The notes under the pieces: generated by a model
Told to the model about the DNA's origin: nothing
Database searches by the model: none
Seen by the model: the letters and a program-made list of their open reading frames with translations, nothing else
Source: Octopus vulgaris
Taxonomy: Eukaryota
Assembly (NCBI GenBank): GCA_951406725.2
Contig: OX597831.1
Coordinates: 55,738,001-55,802,000 of the forward strand
Length of the DNA stretch: 64,000 nt
Direction of reading: 5' to 3'
Made by a program: the position numbers and the translations under genes
Shown: positions 2,888 through 18,540 of the stretch, one piece after another
Position numbering within the stretch: the stretch's first letter is position 1
Layout of the letters: each line of letters starts with the position of its first letter

Positions 2888-3059
2888 ATGGCGGCGATAC
2901 GTCCGTCGTCTGCGACCATAGCATGTCTTTATATTACTTTTCTGGCTTTTGTTTTGCTGTGTATCTACAGTTTCACCCCGTTTAATGGACGCCTTATTGC
3001 GGAGAATGTTAGTTATGGAGTGGGTTTCCTTCTTTTATCAACGTTCATTTTAGGTTCTG
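2888..3059 (+). CDS. Exon 1 (first coding exon) of the SatP-YrdC fusion gene
   Basis: [57 protein letters not shown] has two hydrophobic segments. Donor G|gtaagt at 3059/3060; phase 1 matches the exon 2 acceptor. Confidence 0.8.
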
Positions 3060-7700: not shown

Positions 7701-10124
7701 ACCTTTTTCTAAGAATATATAATAGGAAATTTGAAAAAAATTACAATTTTCAAAGAAAATACTGAAACAACTGCATTCCTGATTTTCCTAAATTTAATAT
7801 ATTCATCAGCATTTAATTGACATTTTAATGTTATGAAAAGCTCTGGAGTAATTTGCTGGCGCCTTTTATAACCTAAGGTGGGATCCAGTGAAACCGCCAA
7901 AATAAAACTAGTTATTTTGATCGTAGGTAGCTGTCATTAATTCAAGTTTCCCTTTCCAAATAAAGACTCTGAAAGCTTTTAACATCATTTTTATAAAGTT
8001 CTTTTTCTTTTTTCTTTTTTTCTTTTTTTCAGGCATTACGGCAGGAGATGTTGAAGACTCCCTGTTACGTGGCTTACTCTTATGTCTAGGCTCGATGTGG
8101 GCCGCAGTTGGTGTTTTCAATGTCACCAGAGATATCTCAAGGCCACCTACCATCTGGTCCAATGCAGCAAATGAAGCTCTATTTCCTGGATATGGAGCTT
8201 TCTTTTTCATATTCCTTATTTTTGTCTTTGGATCTATCTTGCACCAAGCAACCTTTACTGCAGTTCTTTCTTTCGGTCTTTTTTTGTCCACCATTTTCGA
8301 AATAGCCTCTTTATGGCGTGCTGTGCATATGAGTGCCGGAGCGTATTATGTCCTACTTTCTGCATTAGTTGTGTATATGATGTGCCAAAAGCTGGTTAAT
8401 AAATTCAAAGGGGGTGATTTCAAGACCACGCAGAAAAGAAAGTCATCTGATCCAGACGTCTCAAACGATTACACTATTGTAGGGTATTCAATGGAAGTAA
8501 TAGTTTTTGCAGTTTTTGCTAGTCACGTGACTGGAGCTACAACAGTTGCCAATAATGCTTTTATGTGGGTCGGTTCGGCAGGATTTTTTCAAGCTGTGTG
8601 CGGCATTGTGGCTTTACGTAGGAATGACCCTTACTGTGGTTGCTACTTTACCTTGTATGGTACATTCTGGTGTGCAGTAGCATACAACCTAGCACTTAAT
8701 CATTTTTCTGGCACAAATGACTTACCACTACTACCTGTCTTTATCTTCTTCCTTTTCACATTTTTATTGGCCAGTTTGATTTCCATAGCTCGAGAAATGT
8801 TCCATGCACTACAGAATATCTTACTATGTATCTTCTGCATTGCCTTTTGTGTTGATGGTGTCCAAGGCCATTTCCTTGGTGGTATGGGTTGGGTTTGCTT
8901 TTTGTTTTCTCTTTATGGACTTGCAGCTCATATGAGCCGAATGAGACAAACTCCTTATAAACTTCCATTGGGTCGACGCCCATTTGATCGAGCTCAAGTA
9001 CAACAGAGCCTTAAAAAACATCTTAGTTGCTGTGCAAAACGTTTATACAAACAGGACACCAAACAAAATGGTGACGGCCTGTTCTCTACTGAATTTTCCG
9101 ACATGGGGTATTCCAAGTATATTGAGCTTGATACCATCGGCTTTGCCGTCAATGCAGTTTCTGCCTTATCTATTTTGTGGATTCCTGCCAATTTCAATCT
9201 CCTCTCCATGCCATGGACAACTGTACTTGGCGGGGTGGCACAGTTTACCGTGGGTTGTATAGGGTTTGCTCGTGGACTTACATTCGAAAGCTGTTCATTC
9301 ATTATATTTAGTACCATGTGGCTAATTCTTGGAACTGCTCGTAGTCTTGGGACATTGGGTCAGGACAATTCAGTGGCCATGTGTGTGGGGAGCATTTCAT
9401 ATATGGTCATTCTTCTACTTCTTATAGGACTTTCTCTAGTTGTAAGCAAGACCTGGTTCCTGATCACTTTCCTTTTCGAACTTATCGCATTGGCATTTTT
9501 GCTAAATATCTTAGCAGTGCCTTCATATGAAGCATATGAAATAATCGTGGTGCTTCTATTTACTGCTGTTTGTATTTATGGTTTCTTAGCTTCTGCTTTA
9601 AAGGTTGTTTGGGGACGAGATGTACTCCCAATGGGAAACCCAATCATAGAAGTCAGTTTTCTCCATTCTCAGGGTCACAAAGCCTTCTGGGCAGATGCCC
9701 AAAAACAATCCGGAGTCAAAGCGATTGCAGGTAAGGAACTTATTTCTCTCCAATGTTAATAAAATTTGTCGATCTTTCAACTCCCATCTTCATAGTTATT
9801 CTGATAAGCATAACTAGTAATTGTATAAGTCTGCAGCAATAATTTCTGTCACGACTGGGATGAGATGTCGAAAGTAACGAAGGTTCGAATCACGCCGGAG
9901 TCACCAAATGTAACAGGCTATGTTACTATTAAATTCTCGAAGTCGATGAGACAGCGTAATAATAAATATCGAAGAGAAGAATATTGTCTATAGCTTTTAT
10001 TGGTGGGTTGGACCAGAAATACACGGCAAGGCTTTTAGTAGTAGCCAGGCAGTTTAGTTGGTTAAAGAGGATGACAACAATGAAATACCTCGCGTGTCCT
10101 TAGATGAATGAGTGTGTGTGTGTG

Positions 10125-10745: not shown

Positions 10746-13180
10746 TGGCAACTAAAGTAGGTCAATCCTAAAACAAAGGATTAACCTTTCCACGACCACA
10801 GAAGGTCTCCAAGGTCAAATTATCCAAGAACAGGGAGTCGGAAACGAAAGACCGGAAATCCATCTGACAATGAACAATATTGTGGTTTCGGTTTCGAATC
10901 TTCTCAACCTTTGCAGCTGGTCCTAAAGGTCTGCTTGATCAGAGCTGACATACGGCTATACCTCCATTACTCATTGGCTCAGGCCATTGGAGCCGCATGG
11001 GACATGGGTAGGCAATACAGTTCATCTTTGAAATATGGAAGGAATGTTTCATAACTGTTTCATTTTTCTGTATTTGCACCTTTTACCTGTTCAGCATCGC
11101 CTATTTCCTAATTCTCCATCACTACATAAAAAAAAAAAATCGTCCGGTATAAATGCAATTTATTGCACAATATTAACCGCTTTATATTGATTTAATATTA
11201 TCGTCCTTAAAATTAACATAAGTAAAATATGTTTAATAAAAAAAATATTGCAAACAATGGTAAATGATTTTTCAGCCTAATAGCAATTTTCCCCACAAAA
11301 TTCTCTGAATTTTCCCCCAGCAACCTGAAATTTCTTCACGGGGATGATTATAGTTCTGTCTGCGTGGTCACTCGAGCTGTTAAAAATAGCAGTCAAATCT
11401 TCTCCAAATCACATCCTAGTATTTACATTACCTATATTGTTCTAGATACACTATCTGAAGAAGAAAGTAAAAAAAAAAAAAACCGTAAAAAATAAATAAA
11501 TAAACAAAAGACCTGGTCTGATCGGGAGCTAAACATCAAAACTAGCATAATTAAACTGGTGGTTAATAACAATTGGATAAAAACTAAACAAAACAGTATT
11601 GTTCTTTGTTGTATCAAATAAATTGAAAACGACGTTTCACCACATTTTTTTTCAGACATCATGAACCGAGGAGGGATAGTCGGTATTCCAACAGACACTG
11701 TTTATGTATTGGCGGCTGCAGTAAAATTCCCTGAATCAGTGGAAGTAAGTTGATTGTTACATTAAATAGATTGTTTCACTGTATGCATATAGCAGTAATT
11801 ATGTACCGTAAATCCTCGAGTTTGTCCGCCCTTGAGTATAATACGCAGGGGATTTTTAGGGGGCTGTACCTCTGAAAAACCTAAACCTTGTGTATAATAC
11901 GCACCCCTTCTCTAACTTGAGTCGTGCGTAATTAAGCCAGCAGCACCTAGTCGAACAAACACTTCCGCGCATGCGTACTACAATAATGGTGATGTTCTTA
12001 ACTGTTATATGGGAATGTAAATATGTTTGCAAATTGTTTTTGTTATATGTTATTCTGTGTTCTTAATACTTTTATTTTCATAAATGTTGCTTACTACAAG
12101 TTATGGAGGATTCTTTTATGACGTCATTGCTTTTAGGCTTAGCTTAAGATATTTTCGCGTCTGAATAAACATTGCCGGACAAACTCAGACATTGCTTAGA
12201 AAATATTTTTCATTTTTAACCTCGTATATAGTACGCACTAGGGATTTTGACCTTTAAAGTTTGGGGAAAAAAATGCTGATTATACTCGAGGATTTAGGGT
12301 AATGTTCGAGAGAAGATGGATCACGGTGCATCCGGCCGTAGCCGATCAGGACAATGTGTGCTCGGAAAGTTCTGCCGCAGGTCGGGCAATGGTGGTCTGC
12401 TGGGAATGAAGGCAAGGAGTTGGCTCTGGACTTGCGCCACTCAAGCTTTTCTAGGTCTCCTGCGAGCCAGTTCAGTTCGTAGAAGGTGGCACTTCTGTTG
12501 GTGCAGCTACACCAGGCAGGGCGGTCCTGTGCTTGCATTTCCCAGGGATTGATCTGAAAGCACTTCAGTGAGGCTTTGAGTGTATCTTTCAAGCGTCTTT
12601 TCTGCTCACTTCGTGTGCGCTTGCTTTTTGTCAATTCACTGCAAAACAGTCTTTTGGGTAGTCGTGTGTCAGGCATTCGAACAATCTGGCATGCCTACCT
12701 GCGCTCTCCACAGCAATTATTATTAAATTAGAAACAATTATACACGCATAGCGTATTCGAAATACTTACACCTGTAAGTAATAGGGAGGTCCTACGGGAA
12801 AATGAGCGTTTAATAGGAAACCGTATGGGAATTTGGTTCAAACAACGTCTTGTTAAGACGAAATTTCTTATACACTTTTTGTAGCATCCAATGGATTTAG
12901 CATTGCCAAATCCTTCAAAGACAGTCCTATGATTTTTCAGAATTTCTTCTAAAGTTTTATTCTATGAAATAGAAAGAAAAAGATTAATAAATATGTATAA
13001 TATTTTTTCATGTCAAGACTTCCTTGAAATATAGTATTTTTTTCAAGTGTTCCCAAGAGCAAAATGATTGAAAAACACTGCTTCAACATATATACGATAT
13101 TGAAATATCATAAAAGTTCATGAATAAATTTGTTGCGAAGTATAATACGCGTTTCGATTGTGTGTGTGTGTGTGTGGGGG

Positions 13181-13243
<63 letters not shown>

Positions 13244-13783
13244 GAGTGAGAGAGCAGTTCATGCCATCAAAGTGACACTGGGGTAAAATATACGAAGCCC
13301 AATATACCCATCATGACTACCCGTCTGATAAGGGTACACCAGGCACATGCATCACAACCATATGTGCGCGACATGGTGATCTCTCATATCAAGATAAACA
13401 GCACATGACCTTGCAGGTGGGGCCCAGTTAGAATTTTCTTCAGGTCGAGTAGCCCATCCCGCTCAAACGGTCCCTGAATAAGGGTTGTTTAAGGATGTTG
13501 AAAGAACCACCCATGTTTCCAGAGGTGAATTATTCAAAACCCAAAGAATCCCTCTCAACACATGGCTATGATGCTCCCCCACTACTTCTGCTCGTGATCA
13601 GAGATGCACATAACACCAGCCGCTAAGGGACATGCTCAACTGGTTAAGGTCAAACAACTGACAAGCAAATCTGTGGTATTGAGCAGAATATTTGCTGTAG
13701 CCCATCTTTTATACCAAGACAAAACAATATACATGATAACACTTCCGATCAATTAAGATCAGAAGCCATGAGAGCCACTGCTC

Positions 13784-13829
<46 letters not shown>

Positions 13830-16800
13830 GTTATTACCTAAACTGTCTCAAAAATGTGCATCGTGTATAAATGGCAGCATTACACAATTACTACAAGAGT
13901 AGATAATCTACTATGATTCAATATATTAGTCTTTTTTTTTTTTTTGTAACATTTCCTCTAATGACGGTGGCAAACTGGCAGAATCGTTACCGCACTGGAC
14001 AAAATGCTTTGCGGCAATTCGTCCGTTTTTTTACGTTCTGATGTTCGAATTCCGCCGAGGTCGACTTTGCCTTTCATCCTTTCTGGGTCGATGTAATAGA
14101 CTTAACCGTTTCCCCAAAAATTGTTAACCTTATGCCAAAATTTGAAACCAATATTTCGTCTTATGACGGTAGAGAACTAGCGGAATCATTAGCGCATCAA
14201 ACATAATGTTAAATGTCACACCTTTTGACTCTTTACGTTCTGAATTCAAATACCGCCTAGGTCGACTTTACCTTTTATCCTTTCTGGCTCGATAAAATAT
14301 AATACAACTCGAGTCCTGGAGTCGATGTGATCGACTAACACCCATCTGCTAAAATTGCTGGCCTTGTACCAAGACTTGAAATATTTCACTTCACGTAAAG
14401 TATATAGGATAAATCATGATGATATAAACGTTATCTTAGAAATTTTATTTCAAAGATTTTAATGAGACAAATTGATAAAAAAAATCCTATCATAGCATTA
14501 ATGATAAACATAATAGAAAGATTTATGATATAAATGTTATATTAAATACTTTGATGATACAATTGGTGTTATAGAGACCTTAATGATATAAATTTTATAT
14601 AAAATGTTTTATAAGATTCACTGATAATGATATAAATGTTATAACAGTGACTTTGATAATGTAAATGTTATAATAAAAATGGTATAAGAAAGACATTGAT
14701 TAAATAAATGGTATAAAGACGTTGATATAAATTATCTGTACACAGAGTATGATGGTGTAGAGACCGTGCTATTTTCTTTAAAGGAGAATTCTTGATTCTA
14801 GTGTTTGTTTATAAGTCTAAGTCCCATGGCTACTGAAGATAAGGCTGGACAATTGTCGTACTGGTGACACATATTAACGTAGAAACACGTTTAACAACTG
14901 TCCTCTTATCACTAGACTCTAAGTTTGTCCTTTCCTCTCGTGATATACCAATTCTGGAGAATTCTTTATTCTTGGAATTGGATTATCTCCCCTTATATAG
15001 ATCTGGTCTAAATTGCCATTTGATAATTATGATACATCCTCTAGTGGCAGAGGTAATTTTAATAAACCAGAAATTTATGTTGTATGTTATTTGATATACC
15101 GTATATGTTGTTAATAAAAAGAGATCTTGATTTGAAGAAATTTTGACTTATTTTGTTTGCTATTGAATAATTATATTTTGTTTGTCTACCTTTATTGGGT
15201 CTAGAGAGCATACTTAACTAAGAAACTAGCTGAAGACAGACCAATGTCTATGTGGATATCCAATGTAAACCAACTGGCCGCTGGACGAGAGCAATTCGGT
15301 GAGATGCTGTGGGCCTTCATGAATGCCGTATGGCCGTCTACGATATCCTGTGTAGTAAACAAAGGTTAGTTTAATATTTACACATATTTTTCATGCGTAT
15401 TACTGGCAATAGCATCATTGACTAAAGGTTTCCAATCATATGTTTATGTTGCTGTTTAACCTCATGTCAATTAGACTTGTGTAGATTACAATAAAAAAAA
15501 TTCTATCGTTGACTAACTTATTTCTTTATTGCTCACAAGGGGCTAAACACAGAGGAGACAAACAAGGACAGACAAACGGATTAAGTCGATTACATCGACC
15601 CCAGTGCGTAACTGGTACTTAATTTATCGACCCCGAAAAGATGAAAGGCAAAGTCGACTTCGGCAGAATTTGAACTCAGAACGTAGCGGCAGGCGAAATA
15701 CCTATTTCTTTATTACCCACAAGGGGCTAAACATAGAGGGGACAAACAAGGACAGACATAGGTATTAAGTCGATTACATCGACCCCAGTGCGTAACTGGT
15801 ACTTAATTTATCGACCCCGAAAGAATGAAAGGCAAAGTGGACTTCGGCGGAATTTGAACTCAGAACGTAGCGGCAGACGAAATACCGCTGAGCATTTCGC
15901 CCGGCGTGCTAACGATTCTGCCAGCTCACCGCCTTCTTGTCTATTTATATATCAAGGACTACATTGTCCAATGGGTCTCTTCCGTTTTAAGATATTAAAA
16001 TAGAATTTGAGATACCCTGAGTGCTGTTTCTTGTGGATTAAGCGACTTAATAGGAGTTTACTTGTTGTTTGATATTATTTCGTGACAAAATTGTAAAATT
16101 TCTATTAGAATAATAAAAAAGAAAAACAAAACAAAATATCAATATTATTCTTTTATTTCTTCTCCAGGACCATGGTTAGACAGCTTGGGTGTTGGATATG
16201 CCGGCAAATACATTGGTAGACCTGACAGCATCGCAGTACGCATGCCCGATAATATGGTGACGTCATTCTTAATCGATCACACGGGTCCCGTATCAACGTC
16301 GTCTGCTAATCCTACTGGTGAAGCAGACACTACGCACCATCTGCAGGTTATTGCAAAGTTGGGCCTGAAAAATGTAAGTTGGATGCATCAACTCCCTTAG
16401 TGGATTTATTTTCTTAACATTGATCGATCACTCAAGAAATGTTATTGAAAATCTAGTTGAAAATCTGATAGAGTTGTATTAGACAGAAAGTAAAAAGTGT
16501 GTACCGTTGTAGAGATCAGCTGCCCAACGGATGTGAGGCGTACGTCTATGCAAAACTGATGAAATACGTACAGCTTTGATATCCAAGCTGTAGATTTTCA
16601 TTTGTTAGTATTATCATAGGCTTATGTTATAAAAGATCTATGTGGAAACTTAGAAATGTAGAGGTTCTCCAAAACAGAACAATCCAAGCTGATTCGTATT
16701 CTCCGCTTATGTAATTAATAAACGCACACTCACTGATTGTATTTCATTTCAGTTTTATTGTTAATTAATTTATTTATTAGTTTGTAAACGTTCTTTATAT

Positions 16801-16968
16801 ACACATACGTTCACATATTAGTGTATTTAATTATATATGTATATACATATGTGTATGTGGGAGTGCGCATGCTTTACAGATACACATACACACACGCGCG
16901 CGCTAGCATACACTCATGCACACACATACACATACATACATACATACATACATACATACATACATACA

Positions 16969-17000
<32 letters not shown>

Positions 17001-18540
17001 GGAGTTGATAACTTCAAATGATTTCAGAAAGGTTTAATGAGTTATGTCCCTTAGACCTGTTCGTTTTATTTTATTTTCACAAACTCAACTTCTATCATAT
17101 TGTTTTACACTCACCATTTAGACAGACTCTCTCTGTTCCACTTTCGCCATTTCGGACGCTAGTTTTGATGTGCGTCGTTTTCACTTGCATCACCGACGTA
17201 CTTTCACCCACACAAAATAGAAAAAGCAAAGAAAAATGAAAAAGAAAAAATTCGTATTTATATCTCAGTTCCCCTAGCTTTCTTTATTGTGCACTAATAT
17301 GTCTGAAAGCTATTTTTATGAATATTTTATAGTTGATTGAACATTGATTCTATTTTCTATTCAGTGCGATGGAATTTTATGTGATGGGCCATCCTTTGCA
17401 AACTCTGCTTCAACTGTGGTCGACTGCCGAAAAATTGACGAAGGTAAGATCGGATTTTTCCGTATTGGACTCGAGCCGAAGTCTCGCGTTGAGGAAATAT
17501 TTGAGCGAATCCAAGCCCAGTTTAGGAATAAGACAGCATCTCACCGGGCTTCAATGCAAAGTACAAGTGAAACTTTGGACAGTGGTGTATATATTCATAG
17601 ATCAAATCCTGGTTCGGTAAGCTTAGAACTGGAAGGACATATTAACGATGCTTTTGATGATAGTGATGATGGTGATCACAATTCAAAGGATCGGAATGTA
17701 GAAAATATTGGAAGCGATGCACAAACTAATTTTGGTAAATCAACAAATATTTTAGAAAAATGGTCTGAGCCAAAACCTGAATCAGAAAACACCAAAACTA
17801 ACAACAACCCCCAAATAAAAGGTTTAGTTGATAACCTAGATCGTATTTTATCAGATGCAGAAAATCAGAATCAAAACCTCGAGGTCGTAAACCTTCAGGG
17901 TTCCCAGATGGCAATAAACATTCCTGAAACTGAGCCTTATGGGAACAATGTAGACGAAGGAGAAGCCTCCACAGAACCAATCTCGGACGATGACGAACCA
18001 TTAACGTCACTGAAATCACGTAAACGCCGCCAGCTTCAAAGTCAAATTAACACACACATTCTGAACAGAGGACAGCACTTAGGATTAACTGAGAGGACGT
18101 TGAACCAAACAAAGAACAAAGAAACAGATAGTTCGGCTGAATTCAAAAACCCGCTCGACACCTTTCGAACGACTTTAGAAGTAAATGTAAACCAATATAA
18201 AAAATTTACCGTTGATAATACACCGAGTCAGAGACAGGCTGGAGATGAACAGAGGGCAGTGACAAGCCAGCTGCCTTTTGAAGAAGAATCGACAACTAGT
18301 AACAAGAAGAAAATTGTACCCCTTTTTAATTTTTCCTCCAAGAGTAATAACCCGTCTGACTTGGAGCGCGGAAGCGAAAACACTAACCGGAAAGATGATT
18401 TGATCAATGCCACTGGAAAGACTGATAATACTTACTCACTTGCTTTTGTTAACAGTAGTGATAAAGAGGTATCAGACAGGTTAAATACATCGGCTCATCC
18501 TGAACGTCCAGTATTCTTTAAGCAAAGGACTGAGCTGTAG
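2888..18540 (+). CDS. Six-exon gene (1166 aa): tandem GPR1/FUN34/YaaH (SatP-like) membrane repeats + YrdC/Sua5-like domain + low-complexity C-terminal tail
   Basis: Manual splicing of 2888-3059, 8033-9730, 11656-11744, 15205-15364, 16168-16373 and 17365-18540 gives 172+1698+89+160+206+1176=3501 nt in one open frame. Intron phases are 1,1,0,1,0 and all are GT..AG with pyrimidine tracts. An in-frame TGA at 2876 precedes caacATGg at 2888. Confidence 0.88.
3990..4362. repeat. 69-bp minisatellite, ~5.5 copies
   Basis: gagaagggagatga recurs at 4071, 4140, 4209 and 4278 (period 69); alternate units are more alike (138-bp dimer). Confidence 0.9.
5600..6076. repeat. (TATG)n-rich microsatellite
   Basis: Direct reading. 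Confidence 0.95.
6133..6410 (-). mobile_element. tRNA-derived SINE (family D); relatives at 25313-25632 (+), 46700-46940 (-) and 61375-61700 (-)
   Basis: B-box-like gagttcgattcctgg head on the minus strand; shared tcttgagcaagacac core and cattcatgacc tail. Confidence 0.75.
6660..7095 (-). mobile_element. SINE family A cluster
   Basis: Reverse complement of gagctggcagaa..ttctgagttcaaattccgccgaggtcgactttgcctttcatcctttcggggtcgat, which recurs more than 15 times in the window. Confidence 0.85.
7170..7680 (-). mobile_element. RTE-clade LINE fragment (post-RT region)
   Basis: [51 protein letters not shown] is the typical RTE LLYGxETW block. Confidence 0.8.
8033..9730 (+). CDS. Exon 2: multi-pass membrane region with GPR1/FUN34/YaaH-like repeats
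   Basis: Long polypyrimidine tract and cag| at 8032; 1698-nt open frame (track ORF 8095-9759); donor G|gtaagg at 9730. Motifs [28 protein letters not shown] and GRDVLPMG resemble SatP GGIAQIFAG..YGSFW and GRTVLPIG as I recall them. Confidence 0.92.
10480..10517 (-). ncRNA. Minimal type I hammerhead ribozyme motif (inverted copy)
   Basis: Reverse complement reads ctgt-CCGACGA-acg-ggaa-cgt-GAAA-ctc-a-gag-TA-acag. Confidence 0.7.
10547..10584 (+). ncRNA. Minimal type I hammerhead ribozyme motif
   Basis: ctgt-CCGACGA-acg-ggaa-cgt-GAAA-ctc-c-gag-TA-acag: stems I, II and III all pair, the cleavage triplet is GUA, and the core is a U4C variant. Confidence 0.7.
11656..11744 (+). CDS. Exon 3: start of YrdC/Sua5 domain
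   Basis: ttttttcag|AC..GAA|gtaagt. Translates [30 protein letters not shown], matching the YrdC signature GxxVxxPT(D/E)TVYGL. Confidence 0.93.
11806..12299. mobile_element. pogo/Tigger-like MITE
   Basis: TA|ccgtaaatcctcgag ... ctcgaggatttaggg|TA: terminal inverted repeats with a TA target duplication and no ORF. Confidence 0.85.
12310..12700 (-). mobile_element. RTE/BovB-like LINE 3' fragment
   Basis: [49 protein letters not shown], the C-terminal zinc-finger region of RTE ORFs. Confidence 0.85.
13244..13783. mobile_element. Interspersed element inserted in (TAA)n; partial second copy at ~42860-42998
   Basis: Flanked by (TAT)n on both sides; ccaaagaatccc..taagggacatgctcaa..ctgacaagcaa..gagcagaatatttg is shared with 42860-42998. 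Confidence 0.7.
13965..14380 (+). mobile_element. Two diverged family A SINEs
   Basis: Head ggtggcaaactggcagaatcgtta and core aattccgccgaggtcgactttgcctttcatcc. Confidence 0.75.
14410..14740. repeat. Degenerate AT-rich minisatellite (atgatataaatgttat units)
   Basis: The motif recurs about 7 times at irregular spacing. Confidence 0.55.
15205..15364 (+). CDS. Exon 4: YrdC/Sua5 domain
   Basis: ctag|AGA..AAAG|gttagt. [40 protein letters not shown] aligns with canonical RIYxxKxRxxxKPL..FWPGPLTLVL. Confidence 0.9.
15520..15935 (-). mobile_element. Dimeric family A SINE in intron 4
   Basis: Two tandem ~180-bp bodies joined at gaaatacctatttc, with a single head ending ccagctcaccgcc. Confidence 0.9.
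16168..16373 (+). CDS. Exon 5: YrdC/Sua5 domain
   Basis: ttctccag|GA..AAT|gtaagt. Contains SIAVRMPD and [12 protein letters not shown] (canonical IAVRxP and PLxxTSANxSG). Confidence 0.93.
17365..18540 (+). CDS. Exon 6: end of YrdC domain plus ~350-aa hydrophilic tail and stop
   Basis: ttctattcag|[23 protein letters not shown] matches canonical DxxLDGG..STVVD..LRxG. An S/N/D/E/T-rich tail runs to ...FKQRTEL-TAG. Confidence 0.92.
   Translation, partial: CDGILCDGPSFANSASTVVDCRKIDEGKIGFFRIGLEPKSRVEEIFERIQAQFRNKTASHRASMQSTSETLDSGVYIHRSNPGSVSLELEGHINDAFDDSDDGDHNSKDRNVENIGSDAQTNFGKSTNILEKWSEPKPESENTKTNNNPQIKGLVDNLDRILSDAENQNQNLEVVNLQGSQMAINIPETEPYGNNVDEGEASTEPISDDDEPLTSLKSRKRRQLQSQINTHILNRGQHLGLTERTLNQTKNKETDSSAEFKNPLDTFRTTLEVNVNQYKKFTVDNTPSQRQAGDEQRAVTSQLPFEEESTTSNKKKIVPLFNFSSKSNNPSDLERGSENTNRKDDLINATGKTDNTYSLAFVNSSDKEVSDRLNTSAHPERPVFFKQRTEL

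Follow-up and report, generated by a model that had tools for sequence, protein, structure and literature searches.

The Octopus vulgaris gene described here encodes, as judged from sequence, a member of an ancient pair of fusion proteins in which a SatP-like channel is joined to a TsaC-type (YrdC) domain, and the lineage to which it belongs, referred to below as clade A, has lost the catalytic arginine of the KxR motif. The reading that we favor, tentatively and with somewhat less than even confidence, is that clade A is a catalytically blunted, ligand-binding subunit of a heterodimer with the KxR-intact sister lineage, clade B, and that the pair acts in immune-linked carboxylate metabolism. 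Here, three repeats from A would join three from B to close a six-membered ring of the SatP type, through which small carboxylates would pass. Clade B would perform ATP-dependent, TsaC-type chemistry (adenylation of a carbamate or carboxylate). Clade A would keep the ability to bind an amino acid or carboxylate, and perhaps a nucleotide, and would stabilize or tune both B and the ring as a whole. Infection-induced metabolism, in company with IRG1L/pIRG1 (itaconate synthesis), is the likely setting of the pair, which is likely no supplier of tRNA t6A. This reading is drawn from the Arg loss in A, the KxR in B, the neighboring locus tags of the two genes, a complex model and co-induction.

The gene occupies the forward strand of the window, which is the whole 64,000-nucleotide stretch that was analyzed and which lies on contig C18 of the 2.8-Gb genome. 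It consists of six coding exons in one open frame of 1166 aa, with all introns being GT-AG. Exon 1 (2888..3059) provides the start codon and helices 1-2 of SatP-like repeat 1, has 58 aa identical to P0001, the Octopus sinensis protein LOC118766235, in tblastn and ends at a GT donor. Exon 2 (8033..9730) comprises the remainder of repeat 1, repeat 2 (8467-8940), repeat 3 (9124-9612) and the linker leading into the YrdC domain. That domain starts in exon 3 (11656..11744), which has a PF01300 match and contains the PTDTVY motif with T636 (11691-93) and T638 (11697-99). It continues through exon 4 (15205..15364), which carries the altered KxR loop, the invariant Arg665, W670 and WPS, and exon 5 (16168..16373), which encodes R731, SxN (S752, 16302-04; N754, 16308-10), a family-specific His-His (16335-40) and the predicted dimer surface, 732-740. 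Exon 6 (17365..18540) adds S791-T792, R808-x-G, the last helix, a tail of ~325 aa predicted to be disordered and the stop codon. One motif of 11 residues is interrupted by an intron.

The contigs of 4/4 sequencing runs, which are presumed to be RNA, match exon 4 exactly and extend into exons 3 and 5, and the joins of exon 3 to position 15205 and of exon 4 to exon 5 are present in spliced contigs in all four. No run is recorded as RNA, but the splices themselves show that the gene is transcribed. The exon 2-3 junction, which connects channel to YrdC domain, agrees by length only: a 3886-base contig has 2160 bases 5' of exon 4 versus 1959 coding bases expected. The predicted protein differs from P0001 at 13 of its 1166 residues. 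Ten of the 13 fall in the C-terminal tail (17560-18540; one of these just upstream of that range), which is acidic, about 325 aa long, far longer than that of vertebrate orthologues and absent in clade B. In intron 4 there is a short interspersed repeat in two tandem copies (15540-15920), with similar copies across the window and at other loci. No other gene was recognized by eye among the long ORFs of the window, a survey that small exons would escape.

The AlphaFold2 model of the octopus protein, built from 120 homologues, shows 18 helices arranged as three six-helix groups, followed by an alpha/beta domain (~609-841) and a low-confidence tail. The alpha/beta domain matches PF01300 (E 1.9e-25), and its closest fold by structure comparison is Sua5/TsaC2 (Z 21.9, rmsd 2.8, 204 residues aligned). 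Repeat 3 resembles SatP in both structure (Z 20.3, rmsd 2.5, 172 aligned) and profile (E 1.5e-8). The assignment of repeats 1 and 2 as SatP-like is based on helix count and profile links and barely on structure. The links are A repeat 1 to B repeat 1 (prob 96), A repeat 2 to A repeat 3 (96) and A repeat 2 to B repeat 2 (99); A repeat 1 gave no match to A repeat 3, and is tied to other repeats only via clade B. In P0001 the membrane repeats escaped detection by Pfam. Between octopus and zebrafish the YrdC domain is far more conserved than these repeats (58% versus 16-36% identity), and in clade A repeats 1 and 2 stand at 16-20% versus 36% for repeat 3.

The first-pass annotation had placed a leucine at the conserved Arg without gaps, and this placement, like those of its other motifs, was borne out. 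The K659-K660-L661 tripeptide (15220..15228), encoded by AAG (15220-22), AAA (15223-25) and CTA (15226-28), aligns gap-free to K50-x-R52 of E. coli TsaC, with L661 falling on R52 and, in four Sua5/TsaC2 proteins of solved structure, on the KxR arginine. Arg occupies this position in 0/120 clade A proteins (best 120 of 322 matches), where the residues are Q in 97, L in 10, H in 5, D in 4 and E, S, A and G in one each. Assembly error or octopus-specific decay as the cause of the loss is ruled out by these 120 orthologues and by the spliced contigs. A-to-I editing, which had been suggested as a means of restoring the Arg, fails on the code itself: A-to-G changes at AAG/AAA yield R-K-L or K-R-L, and the CTA codon at the Arg position remains Leu. 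No variant letters were present at these codons in the contigs of the four runs, which drop rare variants. Two further substitutions were rejected as signs of inactivity. The G-to-V change after PTDTVY does not qualify because KxR-intact clade B also lacks the Gly (Ala in 125/128 domains), and WPGP-to-WPST does not because the Ser of WPS, present in 119/120 clade A proteins (best of 322), sits in the predicted dimer interface.

The remainder of the ligand pocket is retained, as the first-pass annotation had anticipated: the Lys and SxN are present, as are four of the five residues that form the threonine pocket. Threonine ligands were assigned from the P. abyssi Sua5 structure (PMC6004061), and the clade A set comprises T638, R731, S791 and R808 (P. 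abyssi Thr35, Arg121, Ser181 and Arg195). The position of the fifth, P. abyssi His67, is Trp in the octopus protein and Ile in E. coli TsaC. Among the best 120 of 322 clade A matches, no variation is seen at Lys659, Arg665, Trp670, Arg731, Asn754 or in a DTTHH motif (K659, R665 and N754, 120/120 each). T636, T638, S752, S791 and R808 are retained in 113-119 of the 120 (S752 in 118), and A662 in 119.

The octopus gene is orthologous to zebrafish si:ch211-153b23.4, and clade A, in the best 120 of 322 matches, spans molluscs, amphioxus, sharks, bony fish, amphibians, reptiles, birds and the platypus. The sister fusion clade B corresponds to si:ch211-153b23.3 and keeps KxR in 127/128 domains of 120 proteins (best of 248 matches), the single miss being a truncated domain. 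The octopus genome also has a clade B gene, an orthologue of si:ch211-153b23.3 (C18:45829118-45848827), 9.9 Mb upstream of the clade A gene, with SatP-like repeats and a YrdC domain in which KxR and SxN are intact; unlike in the clade A gene, the bulk of this domain lies in one exon. In addition, a separate canonical YRDC, which the first-pass annotation had wanted confirmed, was found on contig C21 as three exons with KxR, SxN, STVVD and RxG. Just upstream of a YRDC exon there (L003:556-1393) are transposase fragments that, from their translation, we take to be Mariner-like.

In the tree, which comprises 79 chosen domains of 289 aligned and has a midpoint root and long outgroup branches, three fusion groups stand together (support 100/100) and split from YRDC, TsaC, YciO and HypF. 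This agrees with the earlier suggestion of a neofunctionalized paralogue. The groups are clade A with a degenerate offshoot (100/99), clade B (99/98) and a KxR-intact third group (99/86). A search of 1.84 billion representatives, which gave 6080 matches with E no higher than 0.001, 150 of them listed, had added the third group (unnamed/MMETSP sources) and the offshoot, among the matches listed. From this topology, the simplest reading is that one duplication and one Arg loss occurred before the mollusc-chordate split. Clade A did not decay after the loss, as its mollusc-vertebrate identity (60.1%) matches that of clade B (60.9%).

Several relatives deserve separate mention. The offshoot nested in clade A (P0156, from the frog Pyxicephalus, P0196 and P0216) has a YrdC domain without KxR, SxN and most pocket residues and is, by its residues, a fully eroded pseudo-enzyme. 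Membrane-YrdC fusions P0152, P0153, P0154, P0159 and P0167, from MMETSP/JGI/ENA/Logan sources, have an intact KxR; these sources are probably protists, and the membrane-YrdC fusion likely predates animals. Gastropod derivatives of clade B (P0297, P0298, P0299, P0137 and P0163) either carry YrdC domains in tandem or lack the membrane part, and Haliotis rubra P0297 combines several YrdC domains with precomputed Pfam hits to PF03199, PF22058 and PF11302. P0248 (534 aa) is an AIR carboxylase (PurE, PF00731) fused to a TsaC domain, and its source is probably prokaryotic.

The conservation of clade A raises the possibility that its site was rewired rather than blunted. Here, the phosphate-binding Arg would have moved from position 52 to position 56 (R665; 15238..15240), with the loop loosened by a Pro-to-Ala change, and clade A would adenylate threonine carbamate or another amino acid or carboxylate, either alone or in an A-B dimer. 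Arg665 takes the position of E. coli TsaC Lys56 and of P. abyssi Sua5 Asn62, which hydrogen-bonds pyrophosphate (PMC6004061), making it a candidate substitute ligand, and it is the nearby Arg, in EDRP, that the first-pass annotation had named as evidence against its own proposal. Its invariance at a pyrophosphate-contact position makes a rewired site likely enough to be taken seriously, and the invariant R665, the near-invariant A662, the constant K659, the intact SxN and threonine pocket and the B-level conservation of clade A, unlike the eroded offshoot, fit such a site as well as they fit a blunted one. Furthermore, YciO, without K50 and R52, retains trace TC-AMP synthesis (PMC12506659). 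Against this, R52A of E. coli TsaC gave no viable transductants despite the presence of Lys56 (PMC2685093), so that Lys56 did not rescue the loss, and Asp or Glu is tolerated at the vacated position in 5/120 clade A proteins (best of 322). The equivalent of R665 is Lys in 127/128 clade B domains (best 120 of 248 matches). On balance we regard an active, rewired clade A as the nearest competitor of the blunted reading, and as somewhat less probable.

Support for the heterodimer that we favor came from a complex model of two YrdC domains, P0001 586-842 and O. bimaculoides P0321 512-766 (98% identical to the octopus B exon), with alignments unused. The A-B model scored 0.86 versus 0.26 for the best of three controls, with contact agreement between runs of 92% or more and a partner pLDDT of 82 or higher. 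The threshold applied is reached by 51/78 solved versus 2/108 mismatched microbial pairs, and by 39/65 versus 2/126 eukaryotic pairs. In the model the domains are predicted to pack via a pseudo-two-fold surface, to which the WPS serine belongs. This surface shows conservation in A and B alike and involves A segments 613-619, 697-698 and 732-740 and B segments 539-546, 623-624 and 659-666. Archaeal Sua5 proteins are monomeric in solution (PMC6004061), which makes a pass carried over from known structures less likely, though still possible; nothing was found in PMC5814804 on the oligomeric state of TsaC2. In addition, segments resembling the AceTr signature (EPxxLG) are seen by eye in clade B repeats 1 and 2 and not in clade A, as would suit an A protein that is the accessory partner in channel and enzyme alike.

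A pass of this kind supports dimerization and does not discriminate which family member binds. As the interface segments are equivalent and conserved on the two chains, A-A or B-B homodimers fit equally well. It could be, then, that A and B are separate homodimeric channel-enzymes, found together only through tandem duplication and shared regulation, with A being a stand-alone, ligand-gated carboxylate channel or sensor. A two-protomer ring has been proposed without a heteromer being named (PMC13316224), and in octopus 9.9 Mb of C18 separate the two genes, with pIRG1 on C23, both of which count against the favored reading. Nevertheless, the locus tags of A and B are neighboring in 16/24 taxa with both readable, molluscs and chordates alike (by eye, with tags as a proxy for position), and not neighboring in 8/24; the two genes are co-induced in zebrafish; and repeats 1 and 2 of clade A are the more eroded, as expected of an accessory subunit. 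We regard separate homodimers as rather improbable.

The link of the A-B pair to immunity comes from expression evidence that is all from zebrafish. In Shigella-infected animals, log2 fold changes are 6.0 for b23.3, 5.8 for irg1l, 5.7 for zgc:174917, 4.0 for b23.4 and 3.1 for b23.5, versus 0.27 for yrdc (PMC6980646, supplement 8). Across 18 exposure conditions, b23.4 correlates with irg1l (r = 0.90), b23.5 (0.87) and b23.3 (0.79; values from PMC8877790). In the same 16-gene comparison, 2/13 other genes also exceed 0.75 with b23.4 (0.86 and 0.78), so that co-expression with irg1l is not specific and may reflect a broad stress program. In zebrafish, irg1l, b23.3 and b23.5 are hubs of a single co-expression module (PMC11140123).

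Four conserved neighbors, namely VOC, YrdC, 2Fe(II) oxygenase and GAT genes, have been described around pIRG1 and IRG1L, in a preprint that also reports loss of IRG1L in therians and in which functional clustering was not seen (bioRxiv 10.1101/2022.06.17.496652). We infer that the "YrdC" neighbor corresponds to the channel-YrdC fusions discussed here, and the therian loss of IRG1L agrees with the species range of the listed clade A matches (best 120 of 322). In octopus, pIRG1 (MmgE/PrpD family) is located at C23:10012479-10018118, and a PhyH-family dioxygenase is found ~26 kb away on the other strand (10043771-10046813); this pair is likely a remnant of the pIRG1/IRG1L neighborhood. The 200 kb surrounding pIRG1 held no match to YrdC or to the fusions with an E below 0.3. 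A pIRG1 cluster at the window locus was not found: considering best candidates only, pIRG1 and PhyH are on C23, DJ-1/PfpI and glyoxalase matches are on other contigs and none is on C18.

More broadly, there could be an unrecognized, infection-induced small-molecule pathway around IRG1L/pIRG1, extending from molluscs to birds, in which an A-B ring, its two TsaC domains one active and the other blunted, couples carboxylate/bicarbonate flux to carbamoyl- or acyl-adenylate formation. Together with the neighboring dioxygenase, VOC and amidotransferase-like enzymes, this would lead to a defense metabolite that was lost in therian mammals. We consider this extension unlikely. That the YrdC domain provides a further supply of TC-AMP for tRNA t6A, as implied by automated UniRef names and as the PF01300 match, the Sua5/TsaC2 fold and the many database entries named threonylcarbamoyl-AMP synthase might suggest, is very improbable, since the essential Arg is absent, a canonical YRDC is present in the genome, the fusion genes are infection-induced in zebrafish and yrdc is not, and the family is absent from mammals (PMC13316224; platypus only, among the listed matches), which nonetheless make t6A.

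Already published (PMC13316224) are the family itself, its division into two clades in vertebrates and the idea of a dimeric ring. In the literature covered, which took in few subscription papers and, of PMC13316224, the main text, no report was found of the clade-wide loss of the KxR Arg, of A-B pairing, of a link between fusion and IRG1L, or of a functional study of either gene. Hundreds of proteins of this family are labeled threonylcarbamoyl-AMP synthase in databases, yet a whole clade lacks a residue essential for that reaction. The split into KxR-intact and KxR-less partners, retained since molluscs and chordates diverged, makes it possible to test directly how animals came to reuse a universal tRNA enzyme. 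The joint rise with irg1l during zebrafish infection suggests that fish, amphibians, reptiles, birds and molluscs share an innate-immune metabolic branch which cannot be seen in mouse or human.

Among known systems, the octopus gene is a member of the Ato/AceTr-Sua5/YciO/YrdC fusion family of Ghasemi et al. (iScience 2026, PMC13316224), having three six-helix, SatP-like repeats and a C-terminal YrdC domain. There, the vertebrate family is divided into two clades, is described as absent from most mammals and is proposed to form a dimer as a six-domain ring. Horizontal transfer is suggested for the protostome members, whereas here the molluscs form their own subclades within A and B, and, in contrast to the reported mammalian absence, a platypus member (P0053) exists. 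The main text of that paper contains none of the terms KxR, active site, catalytic, IRG1, itacon- or heterodimer.

The channel part shares its six-helix fold, in repeat 3, with the SatP/Ato1 (Ady2) acetate-succinate channels (AceTr, PF01184), and differs in having three fused repeats and an added enzyme domain. The AceTr signature NPAPLGL(M/S) (motif from PMC8379382) is not recognizable by eye in clade A. With TsaC/Sua5/YRDC (COG0009, PF01300) the octopus domain shares the fold, the KxR lysine, SxN, all but one of the five threonine-binding residues and the TsaC-type Thr/Ser at position 138. It is distinguished by the loss of Arg52, Lys56 changed to Arg, a Trp where Sua5 has His67, the added His-His, the membrane fusion and the predicted dimer. 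Identity is 21% to E. coli TsaC and 20% to two aligned exons of the YRDC of the same genome.

YciO is the known precedent of a KxR-less paralogue with trace activity only (PMC12506659), is marked by the absence of K50 and R52 (PMC2685093) and likewise coexists with a true TsaC. E. coli YciO and the octopus protein both have Leu at the Arg52 position; as most of clade A has Gln there, this likeness is convergent. YciO differs in also being without Lys50 and the Asn of SxN, in its separate branch, in its low identity (19%) and in having no membrane domain. HypF, which reuses the TsaC fold for a non-tRNA carbamoyl-adenylate reaction, has a YrdC-like domain of the same fold (Z 14.6-17.7). The first-pass annotation had set HypF beside YciO, and as a parallel for the Arg loss it does not hold, because E. 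coli HypF retains KxR; the other HypF domains are absent from the octopus protein, which has PF01300 only. By analogy, HypF may instead be a precedent for the role of clade B.
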